DNA from: Nitrosomonas oligotropha
GTDB lineage: Bacteria; Pseudomonadota; Gammaproteobacteria; Burkholderiales; Nitrosomonadaceae
Direction: 5' to 3'
Assembly: GCA_008015635.1 (NCBI GenBank)
Contig: SSFX01000036.1
Span: forward strand, 6,603-70,602
Length of the DNA stretch: 64,000 nucleotides
Positions within the stretch are counted from its first letter, which is position 1. The number at the start of each line of letters is the position of its first letter. Under the pieces are notes generated by a model. The model did no database searches and was not told the DNA's origin. It was given only the letters and a program-made list of their open reading frames with translations. A program made the translations under genes and the position numbers. Of this stretch, positions 3,949-28,574 are shown one piece after another.

Positions 3949-4530
3949 CTATTGATGTACTTTAGCGGCCAACTGAAGCAGTTTTGAGCTGATATCCAGT
4001 CCCGACTTGCGTGCGATTCCCAGATTGATTTCAAATACAATTTTTTCATTGACCAGGTTCATATTGATGATCACCCCTTGGGATATGGCGTTTGGGTTGT
4101 CGGCCAATGTCAGGATGGGTTGGCCGGGCAGACTGCTCAATAGGTTTGACAGGTTGCTGCTGACCGACTTGGAGAAGAATATCACCTGGCACCCGGTTAA
4201 TTTCTCCGGATTGTCTATCCGCGCGACTTTGATGTGACGCTTGTCGACCGGTTTGTTTTGCAGTTTGTCGATTTCGCTGCCAAAGAAATCTTCGCCGTAA
4301 ACGCACAGATTAATCGTTTGACCCACATTCTCGGGCCACTGCGTGAAGGCGATAAAGTTATAAATAAAAGCGGCCTTGACTTGATACTCAACGATACTGT
4401 CGGCTTTGGCAGTTGAGTGCGTAACCGGCAGACCGTAACCTAACCCCAGAGCTAAAATGAAGCCGTAGACACATCGTTTCACGATTGTGCCTGAGCGTCG
4501 GATGAGCTGGTTAAGTGTGGGCATATTCAT
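3949..4530 (-). CDS. yfiR: YfiR family (DUF4154) periplasmic protein, copy 1
   Basis: EYQVKAAFIYNFIAFTQWP, LCVYG, CQVIF, FEINL...GLDISSKLLQLA; ATG 4530 chosen as start because the ORF-track start 4551 overlaps the upstream gene. Confidence 0.88.
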   Translation of the reverse strand: MNMPTLNQLIRRSGTIVKRCVYGFILALGLGYGLPVTHSTAKADSIVEYQVKAAFIYNFIAFTQWPENVGQTINLCVYGEDFFGSEIDKLQNKPVDKRHIKVARIDNPEKLTGCQVIFFSKSVSSNLSNLLSSLPGQPILTLADNPNAISQGVIINMNLVNEKIVFEINLGIARKSGLDISSKLLQLAAKVHQ

Positions 4531-4538
4531 TGTTCTGA

Positions 4539-6635
4539 TTAGAAGCGCCACTGTGCTCCGGCGTAAATTCCTCGCGGAATGAACGCGGGTACGATTGGAA
4601 TAAACTCAGAGCCCATCTCTCGATGATTCTGGCTAAACAGATTTTGACCCACAACGAATAGCTCGGTATTTTTGGTTGGTCTGTATGCCAGTTTTGCATC
4701 CATCGTGACATAGCTTGGGATGTTGTAAAAAGAGATATTGCTGGTATAGCGCAGCCAAAGATTGAGTTGTAATTTCTCGGAGAAATCGTAGTTAGAACGA
4801 ACCGACAGCTGATGCTGAGGATTTACCTTACTGATACCGCCAGCGGTTGGGTCGGATTTTGTCAGCAAATTATTCGAGGAGAAGTCTATGTGGAGAAAGC
4901 TGTAACTGCTTTGCAGGCGCCAATTTTCTTTTGGCTTCCAATCAACCGATGTTTCAAAACCATAGGTTAGCGCGGATCCCTGATTGTTAATGGTTAAGGG
5001 CAGCAGAAGTTGCCTTGGGAGTCCGGTCATGAACGATAGTGTGCCAAAGCTTGCGTCACGCATTTGACTATAGTCGTTGACGAACCCTGCCAAATCAATG
5101 GAGGCCTGGGGAGTGAACTGGCGCCGGTAGCCCAGTTCATAGGCGATTAATTTTTCCGAGTTAAAGTGATGGCTGCCGTTCAGTATAGCGGTGATAGGGA
5201 ATGACAACGCGGATAATCCGGCCGCATTTTGCAATTGTGGTGTGATATTAATCATGGAGTCGTTTTCCGCGCGCGAAGGCGTCCGCACCGCGCGGGATAC
5301 CGCCAGCCAAATTGAGTTCTCGGTATTCGGCGTCCACATCAGGCGTGCATTGGGTTGTATCTCCATGCCGGTAAAATCGTTGTGCTCAAATCGGCTGCCT
5401 AATGTAAACAACAGGCGATCCGGTATCAACGTGATGTCATCACGGATGAAAGTGCCGATTAAATGATTCGTTTGTTCACGCGGAGAGAATGTCAATAAAT
5501 GAGTATCGAAAACTTTGTTGTGATAAAGCCGGTAATTAGCGCCCCATGTCAAATTATGCCGCTCGAATAAAGGAAACCGGTATTGCATGTCGACGTCAAA
5601 GCTCTCGGCGTTAAATTTCCCTATGGGTTGCAGTATCGACTGATTCTGGTCGTAGTAAGCTTGTAGCATGAAGGAGGAATTCTCGGAGAACGTCCGGTCC
5701 CAGCGGAAGCGTATATTTCCCCCTTCATTATGTCCGCGCATTTCACCGGACCGGTTGATCGATAGATTGGAAGCGCTTTTATCCAGCGTGCCGCCATCGA
5801 AATTGGAAAAGAAATCGCCTTGCAATGTAAATTGGTCAATGCCACGGCTATGGTCGAAGCGAAATCCACCCCTGGCCGAATGCCATTGATCGTTAGCGCT
5901 TTCCCCGGATAACGATTGGGTCTGGCCTCGGGTGAATCCTTTCGCGTAGACACGGAAAGGCGTGTCTTCATTGATCATGCCGCCATAGCGGGCGCCTGCG
6001 AAACCGTTCTCGAAACTTCCCCCGCCGGCGGTAAAGAGCGCGCCCTGGGTATCGGCGGCTTTCTTGGTGATAATATTGATGACGCCATTGACCGCATTGG
6101 ATCCCCACGATGTGGCGGCAGGGCCGCGGATCACCTCGATGCGTTCGATATCTTCCATCAGCGTGTCTTGCTGTTCCCATAATACGCCGGAGAAAATCGG
6201 TGAATAGACACTGCGGCCGTCCATCAGCACTTGCAGCTTGTTGGCATAAAGGCCATTAAAGCCGCGAATACTGACCGCCCACTTATCGGTGCCGACGCGA
6301 TCGACTTGCACGCCGGGCGCCATTCTTAAAGCATCTGGAATACTTGTCGCACCGGAGCGGCGGATGTCGTCCTGGGTAATGACAAAAACTGCGGATGCCA
6401 CTTGGGTAAGCCGTTGCGGATTTCTCGAGACCGTGGTTACCTTGACGTTCATCAGCTCTTCAATGCTCAGGTTCAGAAACTGATTATTGATCGATTGGTT
6501 CTCCGCCATCGCCGGATTCGCAAGGTATCCAAGCAGAAACAAGCTGGCAAGCCGCAGCGTCAAGGTTTTACGATGCTGCTGCTTTGGTTGCCGGTGAATG
6601 GGATGCAATTGAGTAAATGGACAAAATATCTTCAT
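4539..6635 (-). CDS. TonB-dependent receptor, copy 1
   Basis: Signal peptide, plug motifs (ITQDDIRRSGATSIPDALR, IERIEVIRGP, GVINIITK), barrel, C-terminal QWRF. Confidence 0.92.
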   Translation of the reverse strand: MKIFCPFTQLHPIHRQPKQQHRKTLTLRLASLFLLGYLANPAMAENQSINNQFLNLSIEELMNVKVTTVSRNPQRLTQVASAVFVITQDDIRRSGATSIPDALRMAPGVQVDRVGTDKWAVSIRGFNGLYANKLQVLMDGRSVYSPIFSGVLWEQQDTLMEDIERIEVIRGPAATSWGSNAVNGVINIITKKAADTQGALFTAGGGSFENGFAGARYGGMINEDTPFRVYAKGFTRGQTQSLSGESANDQWHSARGGFRFDHSRGIDQFTLQGDFFSNFDGGTLDKSASNLSINRSGEMRGHNEGGNIRFRWDRTFSENSSFMLQAYYDQNQSILQPIGKFNAESFDVDMQYRFPLFERHNLTWGANYRLYHNKVFDTHLLTFSPREQTNHLIGTFIRDDITLIPDRLLFTLGSRFEHNDFTGMEIQPNARLMWTPNTENSIWLAVSRAVRTPSRAENDSMINITPQLQNAAGLSALSFPITAILNGSHHFNSEKLIAYELGYRRQFTPQASIDLAGFVNDYSQMRDASFGTLSFMTGLPRQLLLPLTINNQGSALTYGFETSVDWKPKENWRLQSSYSFLHIDFSSNNLLTKSDPTAGGISKVNPQHQLSVRSNYDFSEKLQLNLWLRYTSNISFYNIPSYVTMDAKLAYRPTKNTELFVVGQNLFSQNHREMGSEFIPIVPAFIPRGIYAGAQWRF

Positions 6636-6956: not shown

Positions 6957-7538
6957 CTATTGATACACTTTGACAGCAAGTTGCAGTAATTTTGAACTGA
7001 TATCCAATCCGGACTTGCGTGCAATTTCCAGATTAATTTCAAATACAATTTTCTCATTGACCAGATTCATATTGATGATCACGCCTTGTGCTATGGCATC
7101 GGGGCTGTCGGCCAAGGTCAAGATAGGCTGCGCCGGTAAGCTGCTTAAAAAGTTTGATAGCGAGCTGCTGACCGATTTTGAGAAAAATACCACTTGGCAA
7201 TCCGCCAATTTTTCCGGATTGTTGATGCGCACTATTTTGATAGTGCGCTTATCCACTGGTTTGCTCTGTAATTTATCGATTTCACTGCCAAAATAGTCTT
7301 CGCCGTAAACACAAAGATGGATGGTTTGTCCGGTAGTGTCCGGCCATTGCGTGAATGCGACAAAGTTATAGATAAAAGCCGCTTTGACCTGATATTCAGT
7401 GATGCCGCCCGCTTGGGCGATTGAGTATGTGACTGGCAGACCGTAACCTAACCCCAGGGCCAGAATGATGCCGTAGACACATCGTTTCACGATTGTGCCT
7501 GAGCGTCTGATGAGTTGGTTAAGTGTGGGCATATTCAT
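6957..7538 (-). CDS. yfiR: YfiR family (DUF4154) protein, copy 2 (recent paralogue of copy 1)
   Basis: Same length and near-identical protein to 3949-4530, offset by 3008 bp. Confidence 0.88.
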   Translation of the reverse strand: MNMPTLNQLIRRSGTIVKRCVYGIILALGLGYGLPVTYSIAQAGGITEYQVKAAFIYNFVAFTQWPDTTGQTIHLCVYGEDYFGSEIDKLQSKPVDKRTIKIVRINNPEKLADCQVVFFSKSVSSSLSNFLSSLPAQPILTLADSPDAIAQGVIINMNLVNEKIVFEINLEIARKSGLDISSKLLQLAVKVYQ

Positions 7539-7546
7539 TATTCTGA

Positions 7547-9649
7547 TTAGAAGCGCCACTGTGCGCCGCCATAGATTCCTCGCGGAATAAAGGCTGGTGA
7601 TGAAGGCAGGAAATCAGCCACGAACTCTCGATGATTCTGACTAAACAGGTTTTGCCCGACAACGAACAGCTCCAGGTTTCTGACCGGTTTATACGTTATT
7701 TTGGCATCCATCGTGACATAGCCGGGGATGTTGTATTGCGAGATAGCACTGGTATAGCGTAACCAGAAATTTGCTTCCAATTTATCTGATAAATCGTGGT
7801 TTGAACGAAGCGATAAATGATGTTGAGGATTTACCTTTTCAGCGCCGCTGGTGAGGGGGTCAAATCTTTTGGTTAATGAATTCGCCGCGATATCCATTTG
7901 CAGAAAACTATAATTGCTTTGCAAGCGCCATTTGTCTATGGGTTTCCAATCAGCAGAAATCTCAAATCCGTAAGTTAATGCAGATGCTTGATTATTGCCC
8001 ATGACTGGCAATAAGAGTTGAGTGGGTACGCCTGTACTCAGCGACAATGCGCCAAAACTGGCATCGCGCAGCTGACTATAATCGTTAACAAATCCGGCAA
8101 TATCGACTGACGCTCTTGAAGAAAATTGATGGCGATAGCCTAACTCATAGGCGATGAGTTTTTCGGAATTAAAACCGTGCGAGCCCTGGAATGCCACCAA
8201 TATCGGAAAAGGTAGCACAGACAATCCTGGGAAATCACGTATTTGCGCTGAACTCATGCGGATGTCGTTTTCAGAACGGGAAGGGGTGCGAACTGCGCGT
8301 GAAACCGCCATCCAAACCGAGTTCTTGGCATTGGGAGTCCACATGAGACGTGCGTTGGGTTGTATTTCCAATCCGCTAAAATCATTGTGATCCAAACGCG
8401 TGCCGATTGAGAACCGCAAGTAATCGGGTATCAACGTGATTTCATCGCGAATAAAGCCGCTGATGAGCTGGTTGGATCGCGTGCGCGGATGGAAAGTAAT
8501 GATATCAGTATCATAAACCGTATTATGATAGAGCCGGTAATTAGTACCCCAAGTTAAGTCATGCCGGTCGAACAGGGGAAAACGATGCTGAAAATCAAGA
8601 TCAAAGCTTTCGGCATCATAATCAACAACCGGCAATATCTTCTGGCGGATACGGTCATAGTAGGTTTGAAACATGATGGAAGAGCGATCGGACATTGTCC
8701 GGTCCCAACGGAAACGGATATTTCCACCCTCTTCATAGCCACGGTAACCGTTGACCGGAATTGTTGGCAAATCGAGTACCGCTCTATTGATTCTATCGCC
8801 GTTGGAATTAAAGAAAACATCGCCTTGCAAGGTGAACTGATCGATGCCGCGACTATGGTCTACCCGGAATCCTCCCCTGGCCGAATGCCATTGGTCGCGA
8901 TTGTTTTCTCCGGATAATGATGAAGTATTGTCTCTTGTAAAGCCTTTGACATAGACGCGAAAAGGTGTTTCTTCATTAATCTTTCCACCGTGACGCGCGC
9001 CGACAAAACCCTGTTCAAAAGTTCCACCACCCGCGCTGAGAAGCGTTCCCTGGGTATCGGCGGCTTTCTTGGTGATGATGTTAATCACGCCATTCACCGC
9101 ATTCGCGCCCCATACTGTAGCAGCAGGCCCACGGATCACTTCGATACGTTCGATATCTTCCATCAACGTGTCTTGATGTTCCCACAGTGTGCCTGAGAAT
9201 ATAGGTGAATAAATACTGCGTCCATCCATCAGGACTTGCAATTTATTGGCAAAGCGGCCGTTAAAACCACGCACACTGATTGCCCATTTATTCGTATCGA
9301 TACGCTCTACTTGTACGCCAGGCGCCATTCTTAAGGCATCCGGAATACTCGTGGCGCCGGAGCGGCGAATATCATCTTGAGTAATCACAAAGACAGCGGA
9401 TGCAACTTCAGTCAGTTTCTGCGGACGCCTTGACACCGTGGTGACTTTGACGTTCATCAATTCTTCGATGCTTAAATTCAGAAATTGATCTTCGGCAAGC
9501 TTACCGCTTGCCGGTGCAAGTTCTACAAAAAACCCCAGGAAGCAGAGGACAGTGAGCTGCAATAGCCATTTACGCATTAGAGTCAGCCCTCGGACCGCAG
9601 GTTCGGTTTGCATTCCAACGAGCTGATGGGTTGTTTGTCTGGTATTCAT
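7547..9649 (-). CDS. TonB-dependent receptor, copy 2
   Basis: Plug and barrel motifs, C-terminal QWRF; ATG at 9649 just after the upstream stop preferred over ORF-track start 9871. Confidence 0.9.
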   Translation of the reverse strand: MNTRQTTHQLVGMQTEPAVRGLTLMRKWLLQLTVLCFLGFFVELAPASGKLAEDQFLNLSIEELMNVKVTTVSRRPQKLTEVASAVFVITQDDIRRSGATSIPDALRMAPGVQVERIDTNKWAISVRGFNGRFANKLQVLMDGRSIYSPIFSGTLWEHQDTLMEDIERIEVIRGPAATVWGANAVNGVINIITKKAADTQGTLLSAGGGTFEQGFVGARHGGKINEETPFRVYVKGFTRDNTSSLSGENNRDQWHSARGGFRVDHSRGIDQFTLQGDVFFNSNGDRINRAVLDLPTIPVNGYRGYEEGGNIRFRWDRTMSDRSSIMFQTYYDRIRQKILPVVDYDAESFDLDFQHRFPLFDRHDLTWGTNYRLYHNTVYDTDIITFHPRTRSNQLISGFIRDEITLIPDYLRFSIGTRLDHNDFSGLEIQPNARLMWTPNAKNSVWMAVSRAVRTPSRSENDIRMSSAQIRDFPGLSVLPFPILVAFQGSHGFNSEKLIAYELGYRHQFSSRASVDIAGFVNDYSQLRDASFGALSLSTGVPTQLLLPVMGNNQASALTYGFEISADWKPIDKWRLQSNYSFLQMDIAANSLTKRFDPLTSGAEKVNPQHHLSLRSNHDLSDKLEANFWLRYTSAISQYNIPGYVTMDAKITYKPVRNLELFVVGQNLFSQNHREFVADFLPSSPAFIPRGIYGGAQWRF

Positions 9650-9651
9650 CG

Positions 9652-11715
9652 CTAAAACCGCCATTCCGCTCCGGCATAAACGCCGCGCGGTATATAGACT
9701 GGAAATGAAGGGAGAAAATCGGCAGAGAATTCTCTGTGATTCTGGCTGAACAGGTTTTGCCCGACCACAAATAACTCGACATTCTTGAGGGGGCGATGCA
9801 CCAGTTTGGCGTCCATGGTGACGTAGCCGGGAATCCGGTAGAAATCCACGCTGCTGACATAACGCAACCAAAGATTAAACTGCAATTTTTCCGATAAATC
9901 GTAATTCGAGCGGACGGATACCTGATGTTGCGGACTGACTTTGTCGGCACTGCCGGTTGTCGGGTCGATTCGTCTTAGTGGCGAATCGGAGTGAATATGC
10001 ATATTCAGGTAACTGTAGCTGCTTTGCAGACGCCATTTTTCATTCGGTTTCCATTCAATCGATGCTTCCACCCCATGTGTATGCCCCGAAGCTTTGTTGG
10101 TCAGTCCGACCGGCAGTATCAAGTGAGGCGGGTAGCTTGCGTGAAACAGCGGTAATCCGATAGATAGGTCGCGTAACTGGCTATAATCATTGTAGAAAGC
10201 GGAAATATCGATGGAAGCCTGAGGTGAAAACTGATGCCGGTAACCTATTTCGTAGGCGATTAGCTTTTCCGCATTGAAGTTTGAAGCACCATTGAGTTGT
10301 GCCAAAACCGGAAACGGAAGCAGCGCTGATAAACCGGGAATTGCACCGAGTGTCCGGGTGTTGAGCTGAATATCGTTTTCCGCCCGGGAAGGTGTCCGTA
10401 CTGCGCGAGAAACGGCCATCCAGATCGAGTTTTGTATATCTGGTGTCCACATTAAACGTGCGTTGGGCTGGATTTCCATGCCGGTAAAATCATTGTGATC
10501 AAAACGCGAGCCCAGATTGAGCCGTAAGCGTTCGGGCAATAGCGTGATTTCATCGCGAATGTAAGCACTGGCAAGATGATTGGTTTGCTCACGCGGACTG
10601 AAGGAAATCAACTCGGTGTCGGATACTTTGTTGTGATAAAGACGGTAGTTCGCCCCCCACGTCACATCGTGTTTGTCAAAAAGCGGGAAACGATGTTGCA
10701 AATCAATGTCGAAACTTTCGGCGCTAAAAATCGAGCTGGTTAACAAGCGGTAATCGACGCGATCGTAATACGTTTGCAGCATGATGGCCGATTTTTCCGA
10801 GAACTTCCGGTCCCAGCGCAGGCGGATATTGCCGCCTTCATTATGTCCTCTGGCCGTTTCTGCCTGGATGATTGGCGCGCTCAATTGCGATTTATCCAGC
10901 CGGTCGCCAAAGGCGTTGTAAAAAATATCACCTTGCACGGTAAACAGATCGATGCCGCGCGCATGATCCAGCCGGAAGCCCCCTCTGGCTTGATGCCAAG
11001 CATCGTTGGCGTTTTCCCCGGTGACTGTTTTCATGTGGTCGCGGGTGAATCCCTTGACATAAAAACGGTAGTGCGTGTCGTCGTTGATTTTTCCGCCGTA
11101 GCGCGCGCCCGCAAAGCCGCGCTCAAAGCTGCCGCCGCCCCCGGAGAATAATGCTCCCTGAGTATCGGCAGCTTTTTTGGTGATGATATTGATCACTCCG
11201 TTGACAGCGTTGGCACCCCAGACTGCCGCGTTAGGGCCGCGGATGACTTCGATGCGTTCGATGTCTTCCATCAGTGTATCTTGCTGCTCCCATTGCACCC
11301 CGGCGAACAGCGGATTGTAGACACTGCGGCCATCCATCATGACTTGCAGCTTGTCGGCAAAACGTCCATTGAAGCCGCGTATGCTAATGGCCCATTTGTC
11401 CGTGCCGATGCGTGCGACTTCGACACCGGGCGCCATGCGCAAGGCTTCCGGAATGCTGGTCGCGCCCGAACGGCGAATATCGTCCTGGGTGATGACAAAA
11501 ATGGCGGAGGGAACTTCGGAGAGCTTCTGCGAACGTCTCGATGCGGATGTGACCTCGACTTTCATCAGTTCTTCAATGCTGAGATCCAAGAACTGATTGT
11601 CAACCGGCCGCTTTCCAATAATCGTTCTGTTTTCCGCCGTCACGGCATTGGCCAGACAGCAGAAAACAATGAAGATCGACAACTTCAAATTGAAGGGTAT
11701 TGCCAGATTAAACAT
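9652..11715 (-). CDS. TonB-dependent receptor, copy 3
   Basis: Signal peptide, LDLSIEELM, plug motifs, C-terminal EWRF. Confidence 0.92.
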   Translation of the reverse strand: MFNLAIPFNLKLSIFIVFCCLANAVTAENRTIIGKRPVDNQFLDLSIEELMKVEVTSASRRSQKLSEVPSAIFVITQDDIRRSGATSIPEALRMAPGVEVARIGTDKWAISIRGFNGRFADKLQVMMDGRSVYNPLFAGVQWEQQDTLMEDIERIEVIRGPNAAVWGANAVNGVINIITKKAADTQGALFSGGGGSFERGFAGARYGGKINDDTHYRFYVKGFTRDHMKTVTGENANDAWHQARGGFRLDHARGIDLFTVQGDIFYNAFGDRLDKSQLSAPIIQAETARGHNEGGNIRLRWDRKFSEKSAIMLQTYYDRVDYRLLTSSIFSAESFDIDLQHRFPLFDKHDVTWGANYRLYHNKVSDTELISFSPREQTNHLASAYIRDEITLLPERLRLNLGSRFDHNDFTGMEIQPNARLMWTPDIQNSIWMAVSRAVRTPSRAENDIQLNTRTLGAIPGLSALLPFPVLAQLNGASNFNAEKLIAYEIGYRHQFSPQASIDISAFYNDYSQLRDLSIGLPLFHASYPPHLILPVGLTNKASGHTHGVEASIEWKPNEKWRLQSSYSYLNMHIHSDSPLRRIDPTTGSADKVSPQHQVSVRSNYDLSEKLQFNLWLRYVSSVDFYRIPGYVTMDAKLVHRPLKNVELFVVGQNLFSQNHREFSADFLPSFPVYIPRGVYAGAEWRF

Positions 11716-12006: not shown

Positions 12007-13950
12007 TCAGGTTTTAGCCGGTGGTTGCGCGGTGATGGACGGTGCAGGCAGGAGTTTTTCTTTTAGCGCCAGAAAAACCCGGTTTCTTCCGGCGTTTTTG
12101 GCTGCATAAAGGGCCTTATCGGCTGCATTGACCAGATGGCCTTCATTTTTCATGCCGGATTCTTTTAGCGCGACACCAATACTAATGGTGATCTGGATAT
12201 TGATTTCACCGATGTTGATTTGCTGTTGGCTTATTTTCTGGCGGAGTCTTTCGGCGAAAAGGATGACCGACTTGGCATCCGAATTTCCAAGCTGGCAGAC
12301 GACCAAGAACTCTTCTCCGCCCATGCGGCAGAAAGTATCGCCTTTGCGCGCAGTTTTCCGGATGACCGCGGATAATTCTTTCAGTACTTTGTCGCCAATC
12401 GCATGGCCGTAGTTATCGTTAATGACTTTGAAATGATCGATGTCGAGCAGCATGACGGCCATCAATTGGTTGGAGCGGTTAGCGATACTCCAGGTTTCCG
12501 CCAGTGTTTCCATGCCGGAGCGCCGGTTCGGTAGCTCCGTGAGCATGTCGGTTAAGGCAAAGTACTCCAGTTTGCGGTTGGTAACCGCCAGCTCAGCGGC
12601 AAAACGCTTGAGTTGTTCGCGATCTTGTTCCCAGGATTCCTGCAGTTGCCGGTAATGCCAAGCCGCCCGCAGCCGGGCACGGAAAGCGCGTATATTGATC
12701 GGTTTGGTGATGTAATCATCCACGCCTGCATCGAATGCTTTGATGACTTCCTCTTCATCTTCGACGCTGGTCAGCATAATGACATATAAATTCTGGCCCC
12801 ACTCGGTTGCGCGCAGAGACCTGGTTAATTCGAGACCGTTCATGACCGGCATCATCCAGTCGGTGATGACAATATGCGGTAAAACGTCCATCGCTAGCGC
12901 CAATGCTTGCTGGCCGTCATTGCTGGTGAATACGGTATGACCGAGCACGTTGGCAAGCAATTCTTTGGTAAGAATCAAACTGGACGGATCATCTTCCACT
13001 AACAAGATGCGCAGTGAGGCGGCATTCGTGGCATTTTCCGGGCGCGGCGCGGATGCGTTCATCATTTTATGGAACGGCAGAGGAAAATCCATGACCGGGA
13101 TCTTGAGTATTTTTCCCCATGCGTGCCATTCTTGGATGATCTGATCGATAAAGGCGCCGAATGTTTCCGTATCCAAGCCAATTTTTCCACCCAGTAGCAA
13201 TAGTGCGGAGATACGCTGGTTGCGTTCGGATTCTTCGGTTAAAGCAAAATCGGCGATTTGTTTCGCCAGATACAGCAGATGCACAATCTGGTGCGGCCGG
13301 GAGCCTTCGGAAAAACCGGATTCATCGGGTTTCTCATGATAGTAAATGGACTCCACAAAGATCGCCGGAAAGCCGAAATTGATCAGCATGGCCGCCGTCA
13401 ATTCGTTATGATCGGTTTGCAGATACTGTTGTTCCAATTGATTCAGCGTAATGTCAGGCGATTGTTTCTGCAGTAGCTCGGAATACTTTTCCGGATAAAT
13501 TGAAGCTAATGCCAAGCAGCCGATACGCATCATCAAACCGCAAGCAAACAACTCATCGGGAGCACATACGCGAGTTACTTTGCCCAGTTCCTGCATGGCA
13601 ATCGCCATCAATAATGAATGTGACCAGAATTGCTGGTAATCAAATCCCTTGCCGGGGTTTTTCTGATATTGATCGATCAATGAAAAACCCATGGCTAATT
13701 GCTTGACGGCAATCAAACCGACGCGGGATACTGCGTCGGACACCGATGAGACAGCGCGCGCAGTTTGTTTGGTGGCATTGGCGCGTTGAATCAGGCGGCC
13801 CGAGAGCGCCGGATCGGTCTGGATCAGTTTGGTGATTTCACTAATGGTGACATCCTCTTGCCGGCAGGCTTCCAGCAGGGCGAGCGCTACGCCTTTGGGA
13901 CTGGGCAGTGCGGTGCTGATGTTTAACTGATTGATATCAGCTACTTTCAT
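12007..13950 (-). CDS. HDOD-REC-GGDEF diguanylate cyclase
   Basis: HDOD (LPSP, DPALSGRLI, FWSHS), REC (LLVEDD, ITDWMMP, KP), GGEEF with RKGD I-site; start MKVADIN at 13950 overlaps upstream stop. Confidence 0.9.
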   Translation of the reverse strand: MKVADINQLNISTALPSPKGVALALLEACRQEDVTISEITKLIQTDPALSGRLIQRANATKQTARAVSSVSDAVSRVGLIAVKQLAMGFSLIDQYQKNPGKGFDYQQFWSHSLLMAIAMQELGKVTRVCAPDELFACGLMMRIGCLALASIYPEKYSELLQKQSPDITLNQLEQQYLQTDHNELTAAMLINFGFPAIFVESIYYHEKPDESGFSEGSRPHQIVHLLYLAKQIADFALTEESERNQRISALLLLGGKIGLDTETFGAFIDQIIQEWHAWGKILKIPVMDFPLPFHKMMNASAPRPENATNAASLRILLVEDDPSSLILTKELLANVLGHTVFTSNDGQQALALAMDVLPHIVITDWMMPVMNGLELTRSLRATEWGQNLYVIMLTSVEDEEEVIKAFDAGVDDYITKPINIRAFRARLRAAWHYRQLQESWEQDREQLKRFAAELAVTNRKLEYFALTDMLTELPNRRSGMETLAETWSIANRSNQLMAVMLLDIDHFKVINDNYGHAIGDKVLKELSAVIRKTARKGDTFCRMGGEEFLVVCQLGNSDAKSVILFAERLRQKISQQQINIGEINIQITISIGVALKESGMKNEGHLVNAADKALYAAKNAGRNRVFLALKEKLLPAPSITAQPPAKT

Positions 13951-19407: not shown

Positions 19408-19478
19408 GGCCAAACTTTCGCTATGCGATCGATGAGCTGGCGGAATTTTGGGAGCAGGCAAGTCATATCGGCGCGCAC

Positions 19479-21485
19479 TTAAAAACGGTAATCCAATCTG
19501 AAACGAACCGTCCGACCAGGCTGCCAGAAAGTGTTTTGCCAATTGGAATCCGCTGCCGGATGCAGATGTTTTCGTTAAATAAGTTATAAATACTGAGCGA
19601 AGCTTCCAGCCCTTTCACCCGGGCAACATGGGTGACCAGATTGAGATTGGCAAGAACATGGCTATCGGTATTACTGCCGTCGAGCGTTTTACGCTTGCCG
19701 TAGTATTGCAATTCATAGCCAGCGCGCATGCCGCTAATCAGCGGGATGGGGATGGAAATATTAATTTTCCCCAAATGATACGGCGAATTGACTAAATGGG
19801 AATCGTGTTGTTCGGCGTTCTGGATACCATAGCTTGCGCGCAACCGGCCTCCGAAATCCGATGTTTTATCGAGAGATAGCTCAGCTCCTCTGGCTAAAAC
19901 TCTTTTTCCAGTTTGTTGATATTGCGACAGCCCGCTGACCGGATCAACACCCAGTGTGATGATATTGTGCATATCCCATTGATAAACCGTTGCGCGCAGA
20001 TTCATACTGGGCAGTGGCAGGTAATCCGCCACAAACTCAGTGGTATCAGCCATTTCGCTCTGTAATTCCGGATTGGTCACTTGGTAGGCGCCATCGCTGT
20101 AATTTCGCTCGAACGAATTGGGTGCGCGATGTGAGCGGCCGTACAGCGCCTTAAATGTGGTTTTCGGAGTCGCTTGCCAGATCAATGCCCCACGCGGGCT
20201 AAACACGCTATCTATCCACTTGTAGTGGTCATAACGCAGTCCCGCGGTTACCGACAGAGTGTCGTTGATGCGCCACTCATCTTGAATGTAGACGCCCATC
20301 CGCAGCAAGGAATTGTGAATCGCGATATTCTGAACGGGATTGTCGAAATTCTGAAAAGCTTGTTTGATGCCGGTGTTGTTCTGATATTCAACACCGAACA
20401 TTAACTTATGATTGGCGATTGCAGTTGAAAGCAGGCGCAATTCGGCGCCGTGCCAATCGCAGGGGCCGGTGGATAAAGTTCTCCCGCCGCTGTAGACCAT
20501 CGGGTTATCGTAGCGGTATTGGCCGAGAAACAGCCGGCCAAGCACGTTCAACGTATCGTTGGCGAAATGATCGTTATATTGAATTTGCGCATTGAGACGG
20601 CGATCGCGCTGAAACTGACCGGTAACTAGCGGATCCGATAAATAAGCGCCCGTTGGATCTTCTTTTTTCCGGTTCCCGTAGATGAAGTCAAATGAAAGCG
20701 GGCCGTACGAAGCGCGGGCAAACATCTGTTTGATGTTCTCTCCATCCATGTGCCGCGCCACCCCGGATAGGCCGGAATCACCAAATTCAAAAAACCGGTT
20801 TACTCCCCTGGACTGAAGGCCCGAAAAGGAAATTAATGCATCCGCACCATTATCGAATTGCTTGCCCAAGGTGACGCGTTCTTGCGGCATCAATTCCGCT
20901 GTCTGATATGACGCGGAGAGTTCGGTGCCTTTCACGCCGGCGCCCTTGCGGGTAATAATATTAACCGCGCCGAGCATGGCATTCAAACCGTATATTGTAC
21001 TGCCAGACCAGTGAATAAATTCAATCCGCTTAATTAAGTCGATATCGAGCGGAGAATCCCATCCCGTAGGGCCTAGATAGTAGGTCGCGTCATTGATGCG
21101 ATTGCCATTAATCGTAATCAGTACACGAGAATTGAATTCTCCGGGCTGACTGAAGCCTCGTGTACCTAGGTTATTCATATTGATAATCGTATGTGGTATG
21201 AATACCGGGTGGGCTTGCCAATGCCTGATTCAGTGAGCGCCAGCCATAGGTGCGGATATCCATGCGTGTAATCACACTGACGGCGGCAGCAGTTTGCTGT
21301 TGCTTTTGCTCATATTTTGAGGCGCACACGATATAGATATCCATTAATTCTTCTATGCTTATCTGCTCTAAATTCTTGGCGGCATAGCCAGGTATCGCTT
21401 GAGTGAAAAGCAGGGATAGCAGCAATGCTTTATAGCGTTGCATTGCTGCGGGTGTTTTTTGCTTGTAAGGCTGTTTAAATAACAT
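19479..21485 (-). pseudogene. TonB-dependent receptor copy 4, frameshifted paralogue of 21498-23501
   Basis: Relative to copy 5, +1 A at ~21171 (TATGAATAACCTAGG vs TATGAATACCTGGG) and -1 T at ~19568 (GAAAACATCTGCAT vs GAAAACTATTTGCAC); restored frame ends LDYRF* at 19479. Confidence 0.85.
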
Positions 21486-21497
21486 ATCGACGTGCGC

Positions 21498-23501
21498 TTA
21501 AAAGCGATAATCCAGCCTGAAGCGAACCGTCCGTCCGGACTGCCAGAATGTATTCTGCCAATTGGTATCCGCAGCCGGGTGCAAATAGTTTTCGTTAAAC
21601 AAGTTATAAATACTGAGCGAGGCTTCCAATCCTTTCACTTGCGGAACATTAGTGACTAAGTTGAGATTGGCAAGCACGTAGCTGTCGGTATTGGAGCCAT
21701 CGAGCGTTTTGCGTTTGCCGTAGTATTGCAATTCAGAGCCGGCCCGCAATCCGGTAATCAGTGGGATGGGCAGGGAAAAATTGAGTTTGCCGAGATAATA
21801 AGGGGAATTGGGCAGATGAGAATTTTGCTGCTCGGCATTTTGGATGCCGAAGCTGCCGCGTAAACGCGCACCCCAATCCCAGGTTTTATCGAGCGACAGT
21901 TCCGCACCCCTAGCGACCACTTTTTTGGAATTTTGCTGATACTGGGACAATCCGCTGAGCGGATCGATACCGAGTGCAATGAGGTGGTACATATCCCAGG
22001 CGTAGACGTTCGCACGCAGGTTCAGGGTAGGCTGTGCGAGATAATCCGCGACCAATTCGGCGGTATCGACGGATTCACTGTGCAATCCGGGGTTCGCGAC
22101 CTGTGAAATATTGTCGCCATAATCACGTTCGTATGAATTCGGTGAACGGTGCGCACGGCCATACAGTGCCTTGAATGTGGCTTTGGGAGTGGCCTGCCAG
22201 ATCAACGCACCGCGCGGACTCAGGCGGCTGCCGATCCAGTGGTTGTGGTCGTAACGCAAGCCAACGGTGGCGGATAACGTGTCAGTGATACGCCATTCAT
22301 CCTGCAGGTAAACGCCTAGGCGCATCACGGAGCTTTTAATACGCAGATTTTCATCCGGATTATTGAAGTTCTGGAATGCCTGTGTGATGCTAGCGTTGTT
22401 CTGATATTCGAATCCCGCCATCAGTTTATGATCGGCAAAGGCAGTTGACAGTAAGCGTAGCTCCACGCCGTGCCAATCGCTCGGGCCAGTACTCAATGTT
22501 TTTTCACCGCTGTAAAAGCCCGGCTGTTCATAACTGTACCGGCCAAGAAATGCACGGCCTAGCACATTGAGGGTATCATTGAGAAAATTATCGTTATACT
22601 GAATTTGCGTGTTGAGGCGGCGATCGATGACTGAAGCGCCTTTGACCAGCGGATCGGTCAAAAACATACCGGTTGGATCGCCCTTGTGCCGATTGCCGTA
22701 GATAAAATCGAACGACAGCGGGCCATGCGAGGCGCGTGCGAACATCTGTTTAACATTCTCGCCATCCAAGCGGTGCGCGATACCGGAGACGCCAGAATCG
22801 CCGAATTCAAAGAAACGATCCGCGCCACGCGATTGCAAACCGGAAAAAGAGATGAGCGCATCGGCGCCGTTATCAAATTGCTTGCCTAGCGTGACACGTT
22901 CTTGCGGCATGACTTCAGCGGTTTGATACGATGCTGACAGCTCGGCGCCTTTGATGTCGGCGCCTTTACGGGTAATGATATTGACCACGCCGAGCATGGC
23001 ATTCTGACCGTACACCGCGCTGCCCGGTCCCGGAATAAACTCGATGCGCTCAATCAGATCGATGTCGAGTGGGAAATCCCGTCCTGTCGGTCCTTGGTCG
23101 TACGTGGCGTCGTTAATGCGATTGCCATTGACGGTGATCAGCACGCGCGTATTGAAATCCCCCGGTAACCCAAAACCGCGCGTGCCCAGGTATTCATATT
23201 GATAGTCATAGGTGGGATGAATGCCGGGAAGACTTGCCAAGGCTTGATTCAGCGTGCGCCAGCCGTAGGTGCGGATATCCTTGCGCGTGATGATACTGAC
23301 AGCGGCGGCGGCTTGTTGTTGCTTCTGCTCATATTTTGCGGCACCGACAACGCTGATGTTCATCAGTTGTTCCAGGCTCATCTGTTCCAGATTCGATGAT
23401 GCGAAAACTGGAAATACCGGTACAAAGACCGAATAAAGAAATAAGTATCTTCTTACGTCAGAATTTTTGCTAGAAGAAAGGAGTTTTGGCAGAGCAAACA
23501 C
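21498..23501 (-). CDS. TonB-dependent receptor, copy 5
   Basis: Signal peptide, MSLEQLMNISV, IERIEFIPGPGS, C-terminal LDYRF. Confidence 0.9.
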   Translation of the reverse strand: MFALPKLLSSSKNSDVRRYLFLYSVFVPVFPVFASSNLEQMSLEQLMNISVVGAAKYEQKQQQAAAAVSIITRKDIRTYGWRTLNQALASLPGIHPTYDYQYEYLGTRGFGLPGDFNTRVLITVNGNRINDATYDQGPTGRDFPLDIDLIERIEFIPGPGSAVYGQNAMLGVVNIITRKGADIKGAELSASYQTAEVMPQERVTLGKQFDNGADALISFSGLQSRGADRFFEFGDSGVSGIAHRLDGENVKQMFARASHGPLSFDFIYGNRHKGDPTGMFLTDPLVKGASVIDRRLNTQIQYNDNFLNDTLNVLGRAFLGRYSYEQPGFYSGEKTLSTGPSDWHGVELRLLSTAFADHKLMAGFEYQNNASITQAFQNFNNPDENLRIKSSVMRLGVYLQDEWRITDTLSATVGLRYDHNHWIGSRLSPRGALIWQATPKATFKALYGRAHRSPNSYERDYGDNISQVANPGLHSESVDTAELVADYLAQPTLNLRANVYAWDMYHLIALGIDPLSGLSQYQQNSKKVVARGAELSLDKTWDWGARLRGSFGIQNAEQQNSHLPNSPYYLGKLNFSLPIPLITGLRAGSELQYYGKRKTLDGSNTDSYVLANLNLVTNVPQVKGLEASLSIYNLFNENYLHPAADTNWQNTFWQSGRTVRFRLDYRF

Positions 23502-23688: not shown

Positions 23689-23994
23689 TTACTGATGCGC
23701 CTCGGTGGCAAGGTGCAGTAATTGGGAGCTTAAGTTTAAGCCGGCTTTTCTCGTCCGATTTAAGTTGGCTTCAAACGTGATTTTGTCATCTTTAATATTC
23801 ATGTTAAGTACAACACCTTGTGCACTTACTCCGGGCTATCCGCCACGGTTAGAACCGGCTTGTCTTTGATGCTATTGATCACGCCCGCCAAATCACCAAT
23901 CGCGGAGCGGGAAATGAAAACCAGCTGGCATTGATCGAGACGATCGGTCGTATTCATTCTATGGATGATCACGCTGCGTTCGTTGATATTCTTT
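23689..23994 (-). pseudogene. yfiR: 3' fragment of yfiR copy 4 (IS-interrupted, additional frameshift)
   Basis: Manual translation KNINERSVIIHR...CQLVFISRSA...KPVLTVADSP then, after a 1-nt shift near 23832, GVSAQGVVLNMNIKDDKITFEANL...GLNLSSQLLHLATEAHQ*. Confidence 0.85.
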
Positions 23995-24007
23995 CGCAAT
24001 TATCCCT

Positions 24008-24036
24008 TTGACATACGGTAATGATTTCTATATACT
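24008..24036 (+). promoter_or_regulatory. Sigma70-type promoter for the transposase, -35 inside left IR
   Basis: TTGACA-17 bp-TATACT, followed by AGGAG RBS before ATG 24063. Confidence 0.7.
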
Positions 24037-24062
24037 GATTCCATCGTTAGGAGATCAGCAAC

Positions 24063-24929
24063 ATGAAACCGATTACACTTCGTCAGTTCTTTAAACAGTT
24101 TCCAGATGACCAATCATGCTTGGAACACTTGTTTAATGTCCGCTTTGGTAAAGGTCACAAATGCCCAAAATGCGAGCGCGAAGCTAAATGGTATCCAATC
24201 AAATCTGAGCGCGCTTATTCTTGCCAATGGTGCGGTCATCATCTTCACCCTACAGTTGGAACATTGTTTGAAAAATCCAGAACATCATTACAACTTTGGT
24301 TCTATGCAATTTACCTGTTCACCACAACACGTCATGGCGTTTCTGGCAAAGAGCTTCAACGCCAGCTTGGCGTAACCTACAAATGCGCCTATCGCATGGG
24401 GCAGCAAATTAGAGAACATATGGCCAGTGTTGACGGTGAATCCATGCTTTCCGGTCATATTGAAATAGATGAAACATACATCGGCGGCAAAAGACCTGGT
24501 AAACGCGGACGCGGCGCCGATGGTAAAACCGTTATATTTGGAATGATGCAACGTGATGGCGATGTTATGACTCATGTTGTCCCTGACGTTAAGAGAAAAA
24601 CACTGCATCCGATAATTAACGCCAATGTAGAAACTGGCAGCACAATATCAACTGATGAACTAAGATCATATAACGGCCTAAACAATTCAGGATATGTCCA
24701 CAATACTGTTAATCATGGTATTGGCCAGTATGCTCATGGTGATACTCACGTTAACAGCATGGAAGGTTACTGGGCGCATTTGAAAAAGAGTATCCGCAGC
24801 ACTCATATCCATGTGTCTGAAAAACACTTGGCAAAATATGCCAAAGAATTTGAGTATAGATTTAATTCTCGGAAGAATCCTGAGACGATGTTTCCTGAGT
24901 TGATTTCGACTTTTCAGGATGAGAAATAG
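24063..24929 (+). CDS. IS1595-family (ISXO2-like) DDE transposase with Zn ribbon
   Basis: CPKC/CQWC Zn ribbon, HTH LQRQLGVTYKCAY, EIDETYIGG, ISTDE, VNH, HVNSMEGYW, EFEYRFN. Confidence 0.95.
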   Translation: MKPITLRQFFKQFPDDQSCLEHLFNVRFGKGHKCPKCEREAKWYPIKSERAYSCQWCGHHLHPTVGTLFEKSRTSLQLWFYAIYLFTTTRHGVSGKELQRQLGVTYKCAYRMGQQIREHMASVDGESMLSGHIEIDETYIGGKRPGKRGRGADGKTVIFGMMQRDGDVMTHVVPDVKRKTLHPIINANVETGSTISTDELRSYNGLNNSGYVHNTVNHGIGQYAHGDTHVNSMEGYWAHLKKSIRSTHIHVSEKHLAKYAKEFEYRFNSRKNPETMFPELISTFQDEK

Positions 24930-25038
24930 CAGCTAGGGTTTTATCAAACATATCCTTATCGCCAGAGGCATCTTCCTCATGCTCTTTGATAAATTCTTCT
25001 AGGTTTCCTTGTTCTTTAGCTTTCTTTAGTGTTGTCAT
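24862..25038 (-). CDS. Small acidic IS passenger protein (~58 aa) overlapping transposase 3' end
   Basis: MTTLKKAKEQGNLEEFIKEHEE...GDKDMFDKTL; start overlaps stop region of upstream cargo gene. Confidence 0.5.
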   Translation of the reverse strand: MTTLKKAKEQGNLEEFIKEHEEDASGDKDMFDKTLAAISHPEKSKSTQETSSQDSSEN

Positions 25039-25483
25039 CAATCGGCTCTCCATCAGAAATTACGTGCATAATATGAACCACATCTATCATTGATAAAGTA
25101 GCTACAAGTAGCATTATTAGGCAGAATGAATTAAATAGTGATACTTCCATTAAATTTGTATCTGCCACTCCGCCTCTTAGTATCAAAGCAAAAAGCACCA
25201 AAATAAATGACAGTCCAAGAGCCCAAGTTGTTTGGTTTATCTCTCTCCTGGCTTCAGGGAATATTTTCTCTTTCAGTCTTCTTTCAATTCTTCCAAACTC
25301 TAAGTGAACCTGAGTTATAGAAACTAATGTTACTGTAACAATTACGGCCAATATATTAAGGATTTCATGATTGATAAAATTGGCTAGAAATGTATTTTTA
25401 GATAAAATTTCAGGTGTGACTATTGATATAGTGATCAATGATGCTGATACAACAATAGTTATCACTCCAAATAATATCTTCAT
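25016..25483 (-). CDS. Four-TM membrane protein, IS passenger (candidate RexB/KwaA-like effector)
   Basis: Four hydrophobic stretches (~3-22, 41-59, 87-103, 115-135) with a charged central loop; ATGA overlap with upstream gene. Confidence 0.75.
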   Translation of the reverse strand: MKILFGVITIVVSASLITISIVTPEILSKNTFLANFINHEILNILAVIVTVTLVSITQVHLEFGRIERRLKEKIFPEARREINQTTWALGLSFILVLFALILRGGVADTNLMEVSLFNSFCLIMLLVATLSMIDVVHIMHVISDGEPIDDNTKES

Positions 25484-26319
25484 CTTTTTATCTTTCCATC
25501 AATATCATCTTTAGGAGTTTTGCCAGCATCAAGCATATCTTTTACTTCATCAGGCAACGCAAGCGATTCAGCATTGTCATCAGATGAATAAACAATATGT
25601 TTTCCTGATTTTGCTTTTGCAACACCAGCACCTCCCTCAACATATGCAACGGATGATCTCACATCATCATCATTAAGCATGATTCCATCGGGATTTCTGA
25701 TCTTTATATCTACGTTCTTTGCATTGTTTCTTTCCTTATATTTATTCAAACTTTTCCTAGTAGCATCAGAGCCACCAAAGAACATATTAGGAACAACATA
25801 AGAGAAGGATAATTCCGTAATTGGATCAGGATATTCTGCTACAGCTTCCCAAAAACCATTCTTTTTTGGAAGAACGAAAGAATCTATTTTGTATTCGTTT
25901 GACCCGGCGTATCTGTTTATGTGACTAACCAAAGCACTTACTAGTGCGACACCTGTTCCTACTTCATTATTTTGTTCAATAAAAGCTACTTGTTGGTTTT
26001 CATCGATATTAAGTATAAAAACAGATTTTTCCCAATAATCTACTGCTATTGGTCTCAATCCTTCTTCTGGTGGAGAAAAGTGCTGTTTAACAATTCTTTT
26101 CCCTATCGCTCCATACACATATATACCATCGCTTCCAGAACCTATATACGTATATTCTTTGTCACGATAAATGAATTGCCAATCCTTTCCAAAAGCAGTT
26201 TGTAGAAATTTCGCTCTTGTTGGACGATTATTTCCTTTTACCAATCCATCAAAAAGTTTAAGTTCATGCCTTTCTGTCAACGACAGTCTGAGCAGATTTC
26301 CTTTCACCACATCTCCCAA
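25480..26319 (-). CDS. Soluble ~275-279 aa IS passenger protein (candidate DUF4747/RexA/KwaB-like, RdgC-type fold)
   Basis: Long AT-rich ORF with alternating strand/helix pattern, FWEAV...ITELSFSYVVPN motif; start may be GTG 26307 after GGAGA. Confidence 0.7.
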   Translation of the reverse strand: MGDVVKGNLLRLSLTERHELKLFDGLVKGNNRPTRAKFLQTAFGKDWQFIYRDKEYTYIGSGSDGIYVYGAIGKRIVKQHFSPPEEGLRPIAVDYWEKSVFILNIDENQQVAFIEQNNEVGTGVALVSALVSHINRYAGSNEYKIDSFVLPKKNGFWEAVAEYPDPITELSFSYVVPNMFFGGSDATRKSLNKYKERNNAKNVDIKIRNPDGIMLNDDDVRSSVAYVEGGAGVAKAKSGKHIVYSSDDNAESLALPDEVKDMLDAGKTPKDDIDGKIKR

Positions 26320-26404
26320 AAATGCTAATGTAATTAGTGAAAGATTTTAGCATTACGTATAAAATCTGCTTGGATTTTGTACGTATGCTAAAGGGATAAT
26401 TGCC

Positions 26405-26626
26405 TAGATTAAAGTTATCCATGCTACGCTCGGGCCACGATGTAAAAATCGCAAAGTTATACAAAAACGCGGCTTTCAACATGTACTCACCCGATTCATC
26501 CGCGTGCGCGTTCGATGCCAAAGCGATGCTGGCACTGCATAGCAACAAGCCGAGTTGTGCATAAGGTATTCTTGCGTGCGAATAGCCTGATAGCTGGTGG
26601 ATGAGTAGCTTGAGCGTTGCCGTCAT
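26405..26626 (-). pseudogene. yfiR: 5' fragment of yfiR copy 4
   Basis: Signal peptide then EYMLKAAFLYNFAIFTSWPERSMDNFNL, ending exactly at the IS right IR. Confidence 0.85.
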
Positions 26627-26638
26627 CGTGCGCTGTTG

Positions 26639-28574
26639 TTAGAAACGCAACGTGAACCGGCCAAAAACGCCGCGCTGAATTTGTACTGGCATCGTCGGGA
26701 TCAACTCCGGTGCGAACTCCTGATGGTGTGACTGTAACAAATTCTGCCCGATTACTGATAGTTCCATATTTGCTTTAGGCTTCCACGCCAATCGTAAATC
26801 CAATGCTTGGTAACTGGCCACCTTCAGTCCCGGTAATTTATCGATATGACGGAAAAAGGCATCTAGCTCAACGTTCTTGACCAAATCTAGTTGCGTGCGC
26901 AAAGTGAATTGATGTTTGGGATCTCCACCCGATTCGGCTTCCTGGCCAAGCGGTACCTGTTTTCTCACTTGCAAGTGGCTATAACTGAGCATGAAACGCA
27001 ACCAATGCAAATGCATTCCATTATCTGAATCGTTGCCGGTGCGACTTCCGATTCACTGGAAGAATGATTATAGTCGTTGAAAAATCCCGCAATATCGACC
27101 GACAGATCGGATGCGATCTGTCGCCGGTAACCGGTTTCGAATCCCCATAGGGTCTCGGCCAGCAGATGCGGATTGCTGATGAGGCGAATAAATTCCGCGC
27201 CGTCCCGGATCAACTGATTGCCGTCGCGTTCAAAGCGGGATGGCAAGCGTATCGAGCGAGTTGCGGATGCCCAGAAAGACTGTTTAGCATCGGGTGTCCA
27301 CAGCAAGCGGGCATTGGGTAAGAAATTTCCGTGTGTGTAGGTGTGATCGAGAAATTTAATCCCCGCAGTTAGTTTCAGCCGGTCTTCCACAAGAGGAATA
27401 TCGGTTTGTGCGAAAACATTGCCGGTCTGCAAGTGGCGTCTTGCGGGATCTAAAGAAGTCGGCAAGCCACACCCAGGTGATCCGTTGTCCAGCGATAGCC
27501 GCCACCCCAGACGATATCCTGCTGAATAGGAACGAAAGGAATTTGTAACGGAAAACGATGTTGAAAATCCACATCGACGGTCTGGCGGGTTTCCTGGAAA
27601 GATAATTCGTTGCGATGCGTGCGATCATAATAGACTTGCAATGCGGTATTGGAACGCTCGCCGGTGGTGCGCTGCCAGCGAGCCAATGCATGCCCGCCGG
27701 CTAGATTGTCGTCTTCCGCGCGAATAGTTGCGGATTCTGGATCAGCGGGGTTGGCGAAAGCCGTATTCTGACCGACTTTACCATCGTAGTACTGACCTTG
27801 AAAAGTCAAGGCATTGCTGTCGTTAACATCCCAATCCGGGCGGAAACCTACCGTTCCGATGCGCCAGCTGTCGTTGGCCCCGCTCGGACTGAAGCTGTTA
27901 TCGCAAGTGAATCCTTTGGTGAAGAAGCGATAAAAAAAGCTTTCTCCGATTTTGCCGCCGTGGCGTAGCGTGGTGAATCCTCGTTCCTTGCTTCCGCCGC
28001 CTGAGGTGATTAAAATTACCTTGTGTGGTTCTGCTGGCATGCTTGGTGATGATGTGAATGGCGCCATTGGCGGCATTCGCGCCCCAGATGGGGCCACTCG
28101 GCCCGTGGATGACTTCGATGCGTTCGATATCTTCCAACGGAAGATCCAGTGTTTCCCAAAATGTTCCGGCAAACAACGGAGAATAGACCGTACGACCATC
28201 GATCATCACCAGCAAGTCGTCGGCAAAGCGGTCGCTGTATCCGCGCGAGGTCACCGACCATTTGTTCGCACGATGCGTACCACGGATAAACCGGGTGCCA
28301 TGCGTAGCAGTTCAGGAATGCTATTGGCGCTGGCGCGGCGGGTATCTTCCTAGGAAATGACAAAAACTGCCGCAGGCGTGTCACTCAAGGTTTGCGGCTT
28401 GCGTGAGACAGTCGATATTTTGGTACTCATCAATTCGGCAAGTGAAGTGTCGGAAATATCTTGTTTCAACGGCATATTTTGTGCCGTGACCGCAGTCGTA
28501 GCTGGAAATAAGAGAAAAAGCAGCAGCCGAATCCAAGTTAAACGCATTGCTTGTTGATTTGAAGTCGCGATCAT
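26639..28574 (-). pseudogene. TonB-dependent receptor copy 6, multiply frameshifted with nonsense codon
   Basis: Consecutive ORF pieces carry signal peptide/SLAELMSTKI, IERIEVIHGP, barrel strands and C-terminal TLRF; in-frame TAG at 28350-28352. Confidence 0.88.

Follow-up and report, generated by a model that had tools for sequence, protein, structure and literature searches.

Can a TonB-dependent receptor (TBDR) stand in for the outer-membrane lipoprotein YfiB in signalling through the periplasmic protein YfiR? The question is raised by an array of genes in Nitrosomonas oligotropha (GenBank assembly GCA_008015635.1, contig SSFX01000036.1), in which six TBDR and four yfiR (DUF4154) loci accompany a hybrid histidine kinase and two cyclic di-GMP (c-di-GMP) enzymes on the minus strand, running from position 28574 to 3949. 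All positions are those of the window, the whole stretch of 64,000 nucleotides (nt) that was analysed. We propose that the block may form a sensor spanning the envelope: once loaded with ligand, a receptor would capture YfiR by its N-terminal segment and so switch the kinase; by analogy with the YfiBNR system we consider this reading somewhat probable.

A catalogued but so far unstudied system appears here in an expanded form, part of which has decayed. What is newly added here to that neighbourhood is a conserved predicted helix at the receptor N-terminus and its association with yfiR. The YfiR family is very large, and in our sample its genes lie mostly beside a TBDR and not beside the studied yfiB. 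If receptors do signal via YfiR, a large class of 'orphan' TBDRs would be sensors, and there would be a path other than FecIRA for surface signals into two-component and c-di-GMP networks. With the conserved helix, the mechanism of the catalogued neighbourhood becomes directly testable as a one-peptide binding question, and in Nitrosomonas-like nitrifiers the system may bear on floc and biofilm formation.

A conserved N-terminal helix in receptors linked to yfiR

The receptors fall into two types, A and B, about 25% identical to each other, and their closest named relatives are from Nitrosomonas. Common to both types despite this distance is a pattern at the predicted mature start of all six array receptors, resembling L-x-L-S-I-E-E-L-M and followed by V-x-V-T/S. 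It corresponds to an amphipathic helix of 11 residues just before a strand that resembles a TonB box. In TBDR6 (type A, intact, 4539..6635, minus strand) helix and strand occupy residues 9-25 of the modelled part (6429..6479, minus strand) and constitute our candidate YfiR-docking site; F9, I14, L17, V20 and V22 belong to the top 15% of conserved columns. The AlphaFold2 model of TBDR6 is a plugged barrel (predicted local distance difference test score 90.5) with a short helix at residues 14-18, inside an N-terminal segment of lower confidence. Profile matches to the Protein Data Bank (PDB) begin at profile position 14 or later, mostly at 21-30, and do not cover the helix.

When scored with a position matrix built from 46 sequences, all six array receptors reached 14.5-30.3, the highest being TBDR2 at 30.3, and the 11 other TBDRs of the genome scored at most 2.8. 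Held-out receptors linked to yfiR scored at least 10.8 in 22 of 22 cases. For the reverse test 77 TBDR loci were chosen across phyla by plug similarity, 67 of which had at least 3 kb downstream. With a cut-off of 5, set after the scores had been seen, yfiR was present in 41 of 52 loci at or above it and in 0 of 15 below; at a cut-off of 8 the linkage was 38/48 versus 3/19. A set of 30 loci from Acidobacteriota, of which one was dropped at a contig end and one was common to the first set, gave yfiR in 15/17 loci with the motif versus 0/12 without. Of 10 motif-positive receptors with no adjacent yfiR, 9 had the gene at another place in the genome, compared with 2 of 15 motif-negative receptors, an intermediate case (score 5.8, yfiR present) being excluded from both groups.

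Covariation added little to these counts. Inter-chain mutual information from 91 receptor-YfiR pairs, an alignment too shallow at an effective number of 78 sequences, returned scattered top pairs with no enrichment of the N-terminal segment. The receptor/YfiR mirror-tree correlation (Spearman 0.43) reflects co-inheritance and was not counted toward binding.

Receptors as the usual neighbours of yfiR

The initial annotation had inferred that TBDRs take the place of YfiB as outer-membrane ligand sensors, and the gene neighbourhoods in a survey of the phylum fit this. DUF4154 occurred in 74 of 301 sampled genomes, with 108 matches. Of the 102 non-self matches, 80 were examined with about 9 kb of surrounding sequence, and these loci were classified by BLAST to domains from their own genomes; the rest were 3 loci analysed already, 3 lying at the edge of a contig and the 16 matches with the weakest scores. 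A TBDR was found in 63 loci, an OmpA (yfiB-like) gene in 6, both in 0 and neither in 11, that is, the two were mutually exclusive. Sensors in the 63 TBDR-linked loci were kinases in 47, GGDEF-EAL proteins in 6, GGDEF proteins in 2 and other or undetected in 8, and all 6 OmpA-type loci had a GGDEF sensor. The TBDR-yfiR-CHASE8 trio is therefore the commonest yfiR context in this sample, and in most of the trios the sensor is a kinase, whose partners vary. Since sensor outputs vary, we take the input module to be general and the phosphorelay to c-di-GMP to be one local way of wiring it. A metagenome scan yielded 17 further loci, all close. In one family the order is rearranged to yfiR-kinase-TBDR, with receptors that keep the helix (L078, L082-L084, L086, L087, L091, L094, L096, L098, L100, L101 and L113).

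Among same-genus genomes 15 of 24 contained a strong kinase match, and we compared the kinase regions of ten related genomes (nine same-genus, one same-order). The kinase core was stable. Receptor and yfiR copy number varied, from one pair (G009, G020) to six receptors (G005), and broken copies differed from strain to strain. These comparisons show that receptor-yfiR pairs have been duplicated and lost, behaving as exchangeable input modules while the kinase core stays constant. In the YfiR tree of the genus, proteins encoded beside type A receptors make up a group of 14 (starred rows), apart from those linked to type B.

An alternative is that the TBDRs are ordinary nutrient transporters, for iron for example, that are merely co-transcribed, with YfiR and the kinase sensing envelope or redox state alone. 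The 11 loci with neither TBDR nor OmpA would fit this, as would YfiR-YfiN pairs without YfiB, for which PMC3375315 proposes a redox role. However, six of the nine kinase-type loci without a TBDR were in genomes with a TBDR-yfiR locus elsewhere, yfiR copies have arisen by duplication along with receptors, and within the genus the yfiR tree sorts by receptor type. Upstream of TBDR2, an AT-rich stretch agrees with the E. coli Fur consensus at 14 of 19 positions, but this is no better than the chance-level background upstream of the other TBDRs, and no array receptor came near the cut-off of any siderophore, heme or vitamin B12 family model. Redox sensing is further disfavoured by the loss of the C145-C152 disulfide from this YfiR type: both cysteines are replaced in the array proteins, which keep the equivalents of C71 and C110, and the same disulfide is missing from the TBDR-linked YfiRs displayed from the survey. 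We regard this alternative as improbable.

YfiR and its predicted target

The array YfiRs match PF13689 with E values of about 1e-44. The AlphaFold2 model of YfiR4 (intact, 3949..4551, minus strand) superimposes on P. aeruginosa YfiR (4YN7) with a template-modelling (TM) score of 0.82, and in the alignment YfiR4 keeps the equivalents of F162, E163, L166, L181 and L183 on the C-terminal surface common to YfiB and YfiN binding. PMC4655355 describes this surface as binding YfiB and as the probable site for YfiN too.

A YfiR profile search returned 30,394 clusters (50% identity, E up to 0.001). Many of the proteins at its head (P0001-P0025) have two or three YfiR domains in tandem, an arrangement reminiscent of the two-lobed type I binding proteins. 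None of the best 150 matches exceeded 546 residues, and no natural TBDR-YfiR fusion was found among longer proteins, a weak negative because the search also failed to retrieve a known YfiR-kinase fusion of G008. The latter (L207:4042-6636) is a natural DUF4154-HisKA-HATPase-REC protein without a CHASE8 match or an adjacent TBDR, encoded beside a REC-HD protein.

The hybrid kinase (16054..18816, minus strand) has the architecture CHASE8-HAMP-HisKA(H279)-HATPase-REC(D570)-REC(D714)-Hpt(H862). Its sensor had been described as YfiN-like, and a scan with the Pfam model bore this out: CHASE8 (PF17152) matched with E 2e-17 and HAMP with 4e-7. The CHASE8-HAMP part has no sequence match in the PDB. Residues 63-67, ATLMF, are the counterpart of 'AAVVF' in YfiN, which PMC3375315 proposes as the YfiR-binding site, and the Phe is invariant in 74/74 aligned sensors. 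The kinase is the sole CHASE8 protein in the assembly, which is 85.6% complete, and no yfiR copy of the assembly lies outside the array; several YfiRs therefore share one YfiN-like target. This agrees with the initial view of one kinase serving several inputs, of which the number that work was overstated, three genes being broken.

The genes of this core are tightly packed, as had been noted for the region from 18816 to 13937. The intact yfiR2 (18816..19478, minus strand) overlaps the kinase start by 1 nt, the kinase overlaps the next gene by 4 nt, and that gene overlaps the last by 14 nt if the latter starts at 13950. The first enzyme (13937..16057, minus strand) is a REC(D56)-PAS-like-GGDEF-EAL protein with GGDEF, EAL and DDFGTG motifs intact and no RxxD site; the second (12007..13950, minus strand; longest open reading frame (ORF) from 14067, likely start 13950) is an HDOD-REC-GGEEF diguanylate cyclase with the receiver Asp, GGEEF and an RxxD feedback site. 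The domain assignments made earlier for both hold in their catalytic motifs, and the match to a PAS domain is weak (PAS_4, E 0.046). The residues needed for phosphorelay and catalysis are likewise present for the two enzymes to serve as the output that had been suggested, which the survey marks as a local feature.

A proposed route across both membranes

How might a surface ligand reach the kinase? Each TBDR would bind its own extracellular ligand, as is suggested by the type A paralogues, which share 66-70% identity overall, rising to 87-90% across the plug core and falling to 43-55% along some parts of the barrel. In BtuB and FhuA the TonB box undocks on ligand binding; a similar release here would free the periplasmic amphipathic helix together with the box-like strand. 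By analogy with P. aeruginosa, the freed segment may then bind the C-terminal surface of YfiR used there by YfiB and YfiN, pulling YfiR off the CHASE8 domain and switching the kinase, on or off. Phosphate would pass from H279 to a REC Asp, to H862 of Hpt and from there to the REC domains in both downstream enzymes, H279, D570, D714 and H862 all being in place. The resulting change in c-di-GMP would probably tune attachment or biofilm.

More tentatively, and in our estimate a little short of an even chance, the commonest form of YfiR signalling may use TBDRs and not YfiB. A receptor lineage with helix plus box would capture YfiR on ligand binding and switch a CHASE8 kinase or cyclase, extracellular signals would cross both membranes without an anti-sigma factor, plug-in receptor/YfiR modules would let one kinase integrate several ligands, and a sister version would combine a type I binding protein with a different docking segment.

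Several observations, in addition to the late choice of the cut-off of 5, weigh against capture of YfiR by receptors. In trees built with the helix excluded (FastTree and quick trees, with long-branch warnings), motif-bearing receptors fell largely on one side, and the association counts given above are overstated because motif and yfiR linkage go largely with one receptor lineage. Restricting the cut-off of 8 to receptors less than 50% identical left 4/8 versus 3/19 (p 0.14). Only 7 independent pairs could be formed, with a mean of 4.3 concordant, 0 discordant and 2.7 uninformative (median p 0.125); this test points in the same direction as the counts and is not significant. The pocket that takes Met59 of YfiB is reshaped in YfiR4 (F151 to I, I169 to A). 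The two c-di-GMP enzymes are not constant, G009 and G020 keeping the HDOD cyclase only, and three input genes of the array are broken. Finally, judging from sequence and model, the receptors keep a full plug, a barrel and the box-like strand. The nearest solved fold to TBDR6 is Cir (TM 0.79, 19% identity), and the V-x-V-T/S strand aligns beside the TonB box of BtuB and Cir, its spacing shifted by one residue relative to BtuB. The receptors may therefore simply transport.

Such transport could itself feed a sensor. A TBDR would import a small ligand via TonB and YfiR would bind that ligand and alter its grip on CHASE8, with no contact between receptor and YfiR and with the helix serving TonB choice or folding. 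Apart from the intact receptor features, the genome encodes four TonB C-terminal domains. P. aeruginosa YfiR binds ligands (tryptophan, vitamin B6), YfiR resembles one lobe of the type I binding proteins 3LKV and 3LFT, double-YfiR tandems exist, and sister cassettes employ a PF04392 binding protein. On the other hand, in the ten relatives the array has neither an inner-membrane transporter nor a catabolic gene as a companion, apart from a flanking ABC gene; the TBDR substitutes one for one for yfiB, whose product is a direct YfiR binder; and receptors linked to yfiR and those linked to PF04392 are unlike in their periplasmic N-terminal pattern. On balance import followed by sensing appears unlikely, if far from negligible.

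The sister cassettes (L179:5863-10389, L229:1282-4887, L231, L236 and L234:1-3432) consist of a TBDR whose N-terminal pattern is not that of the array receptors, a type I binding protein of family PF04392 and a membrane sensor, the sensor being a HAMP kinase in L179 and giving a weak sCache_4 match in L236; a TPR-PF04392 fusion lies upstream in L234. PF04392 proteins are structural relatives of YfiR, and the contrast supports a docking role for the N-terminal segment.

Layout, decay and selection

Read along the minus strand, the array comprises TBDR1, yfiR1, TBDR2, TBDR3, yfiR2, the hybrid kinase, the REC-GGDEF-EAL gene, the HDOD-REC-GGEEF gene, TBDR4, TBDR5, yfiR3, TBDR6 and yfiR4. Six TBDR and four yfiR loci had been reported within 3949-28574, and all were recovered, every yfiR immediately 3' of a TBDR and no yfiR directly behind TBDR2 or TBDR4. 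Intact are 4/6 TBDRs, 3/4 yfiRs, the kinase and both enzymes. TBDR1 (type A, 26639..28574, minus strand) is a pseudogene that changes frame four times and has an in-frame stop (TAG) near 28350; it retains the helix motif, and its orthologue is broken in G010, G017 and G011 too. TBDR3 (type B, 19463..21485, minus strand) carries frameshifts near 21172 and 19570. In G010 TBDR3 is intact and TBDR2 is the broken copy; here TBDR2 (type B, 21498..23501, minus strand) is intact. Also intact are the type A receptors TBDR4 (9652..11715) and TBDR5 (7547..9574) and yfiR3 (6957..7559; 83% identity to yfiR4), all on the minus strand.

The third broken gene, yfiR1 (about 23688 to 26626, minus strand), is interrupted by a 2.4-kb IS1595-family insertion sequence (about 23996..26403) with terminal inverted repeats; about 15 codons were lost at the junction, and there is an additional frameshift near 23835. 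G010 and G017 have an intact orthologue of 193 residues. The transposase (24063-24929) is on the plus strand, and the array is for that reason not wholly co-oriented as first described. Two cargo ORFs in a region of 38% GC, both on the minus strand (25016-25483, 155 residues, membrane-type; 25480-26319, 279 residues), had no Pfam match. The element is single copy in the assembly. An assembly artefact was ruled out, a contig of sequencing run X1 (depth 134) covering 23310-27708 without differences; this run is not independent because it may be the source of the assembly. Runs X2 and X3 gave little or no coverage across the element.

The broken genes suggest another possibility, that only the TBDR(B)-yfiR2-kinase-enzymes unit signals and the extra type A receptor/yfiR pairs act elsewhere or decay. 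Other broken copies occur in G010, G017 and G011, gaps of 291 nt before TBDR4 and 321 nt before TBDR6 could be operon breaks, and G009 and G020 have the core alone. Yet the ratio of non-synonymous to synonymous substitution rates (dN/dS) was about 0.08-0.11 for yfiR3/4 and the receptors of type A, no other CHASE8 protein turned up as a target in this 85.6% complete assembly, and G008 has a type A pair within the kinase operon and no type B pair there. A signalling role confined to the core accordingly seems quite improbable. In comparisons of intact genes with relatives dN/dS was 0.04-0.11 in 12 of 13 cases; the exception, 0.39 for yfiR2 versus G010, rests on very few changes. These ratios indicate that the intact TBDRs, YfiRs, kinase and c-di-GMP enzymes are under purifying selection.

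Scans for promoters (9 versus 13.1) and terminators (11 versus 11.2) were at the level of shuffled sequence, and RNA run X16 contained scattered related pieces only. Immediately behind yfiR4, a 288-residue protein with a signal peptide and several Cys (2913-3779, minus strand) is found also in G010, G017, G005 and G023; it had no Pfam or NCBIfam match and no usable atlas match, and it may be a secreted ligand of the system or one of its outputs. Converging on the array at 341-2748 (plus strand), in the same position in G010, G017 and G023, are genes for a sensor-less histidine kinase-like protein and a REC-TPR protein. Elsewhere in the window are hydrogenase maturation-type genes close to the array (33894-37841, minus strand; HypD, AIRS-like, formyltransferase/ECH fusion) and a gene for a protein with DUF6851 and a vanadium chloroperoxidase-like domain (60416-61855, minus strand).

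Relation to known systems

The best family match for all three array components is an NCBIfam trio: NF053590 (TOL_0244 family TBDR), NF053591 (TOL_0243 family YfiR-like) and NF053592 (sensor kinase, YfiR-like protein-associated). The order is the same, TBDR3, yfiR2 and the kinase being adjacent and overlapping at their ends. TBDR4 (645.2) and TBDR5 (646.4) pass the NF053590 cut-off of 645, TBDR6 (637) is slightly below it and type B TBDR2 (144) lies outside the family; the YfiRs score 114-119 bits against NF053591 over their full length (cut-off 125), and the kinase scores 136 against NF053592 (cut-off 194), covering 2-222 of 223 positions. Relative to the trio, the array is expanded to six receptors and four yfiRs with one Hpt-bearing kinase and two c-di-GMP enzymes. 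These models name proteins and give no mechanism. In 2012, PMC3375315 already described YfiR paired with hybrid kinase or Hpt outputs where yfiB is absent, Thauera with its two yfiRs being among the examples. With these precedents the novelty initially attached to the neighbourhood was overstated. In the parts available, that paper contains no 'TonB-dependent' in its text and no 'TonB' in its eight supplements, and our literature search, in which subscription papers were mostly out of reach, found no experimental study of the trio or of a TBDR-YfiR link.

With YfiBNR of P. aeruginosa and E. coli, the counterpart of HmsCDE in Yersinia, the array shares the YfiR fold, a CHASE8-HAMP sensor with an exposed Phe, and c-di-GMP as final output, and we liken the two at the presumed YfiR-CHASE8 step. 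Unlike YfiBNR, the array has a kinase as sensor output in place of a GGDEF cyclase, no yfiB in the operon (none of the genome's 9 OmpA matches is on the array contig), YfiRs without C145-C152 that score 59-63 against NF053586 (cut-off 85), and a beta-barrel receptor as the proposed outer-membrane partner. Membership of canonical YfiBNR was ruled out by the missing yfiB, GGDEF sensor and second disulfide.

In FecIRA, FpvAIR and HasRSI an N-terminal periplasmic extension of the TBDR is the proposed transducer, and we propose the same for the array receptors. Here the extension is an 11-residue helix, the plug starting about 20 residues past the signal peptide with no STN match, and the signal would be carried by a soluble protein of the periplasm together with a phosphorelay. 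As anticipated in the initial annotation, no OmpA, FecR, STN or extracytoplasmic function (ECF) sigma factor match was found among 24 proteins at 1-32 kb of the window and 22 of 32 ORFs at 32-64 kb. A FecIRA-type system was ruled out on this basis, there being no STN, anti-sigma or ECF sigma factor among the scanned proteins, and the proposed route would be distinct from FecIRA, as had been suggested. With the transporters Cir and BtuB the receptors share plug, barrel and box-like strand, and they differ from these in the helix and in the spacing of the box.

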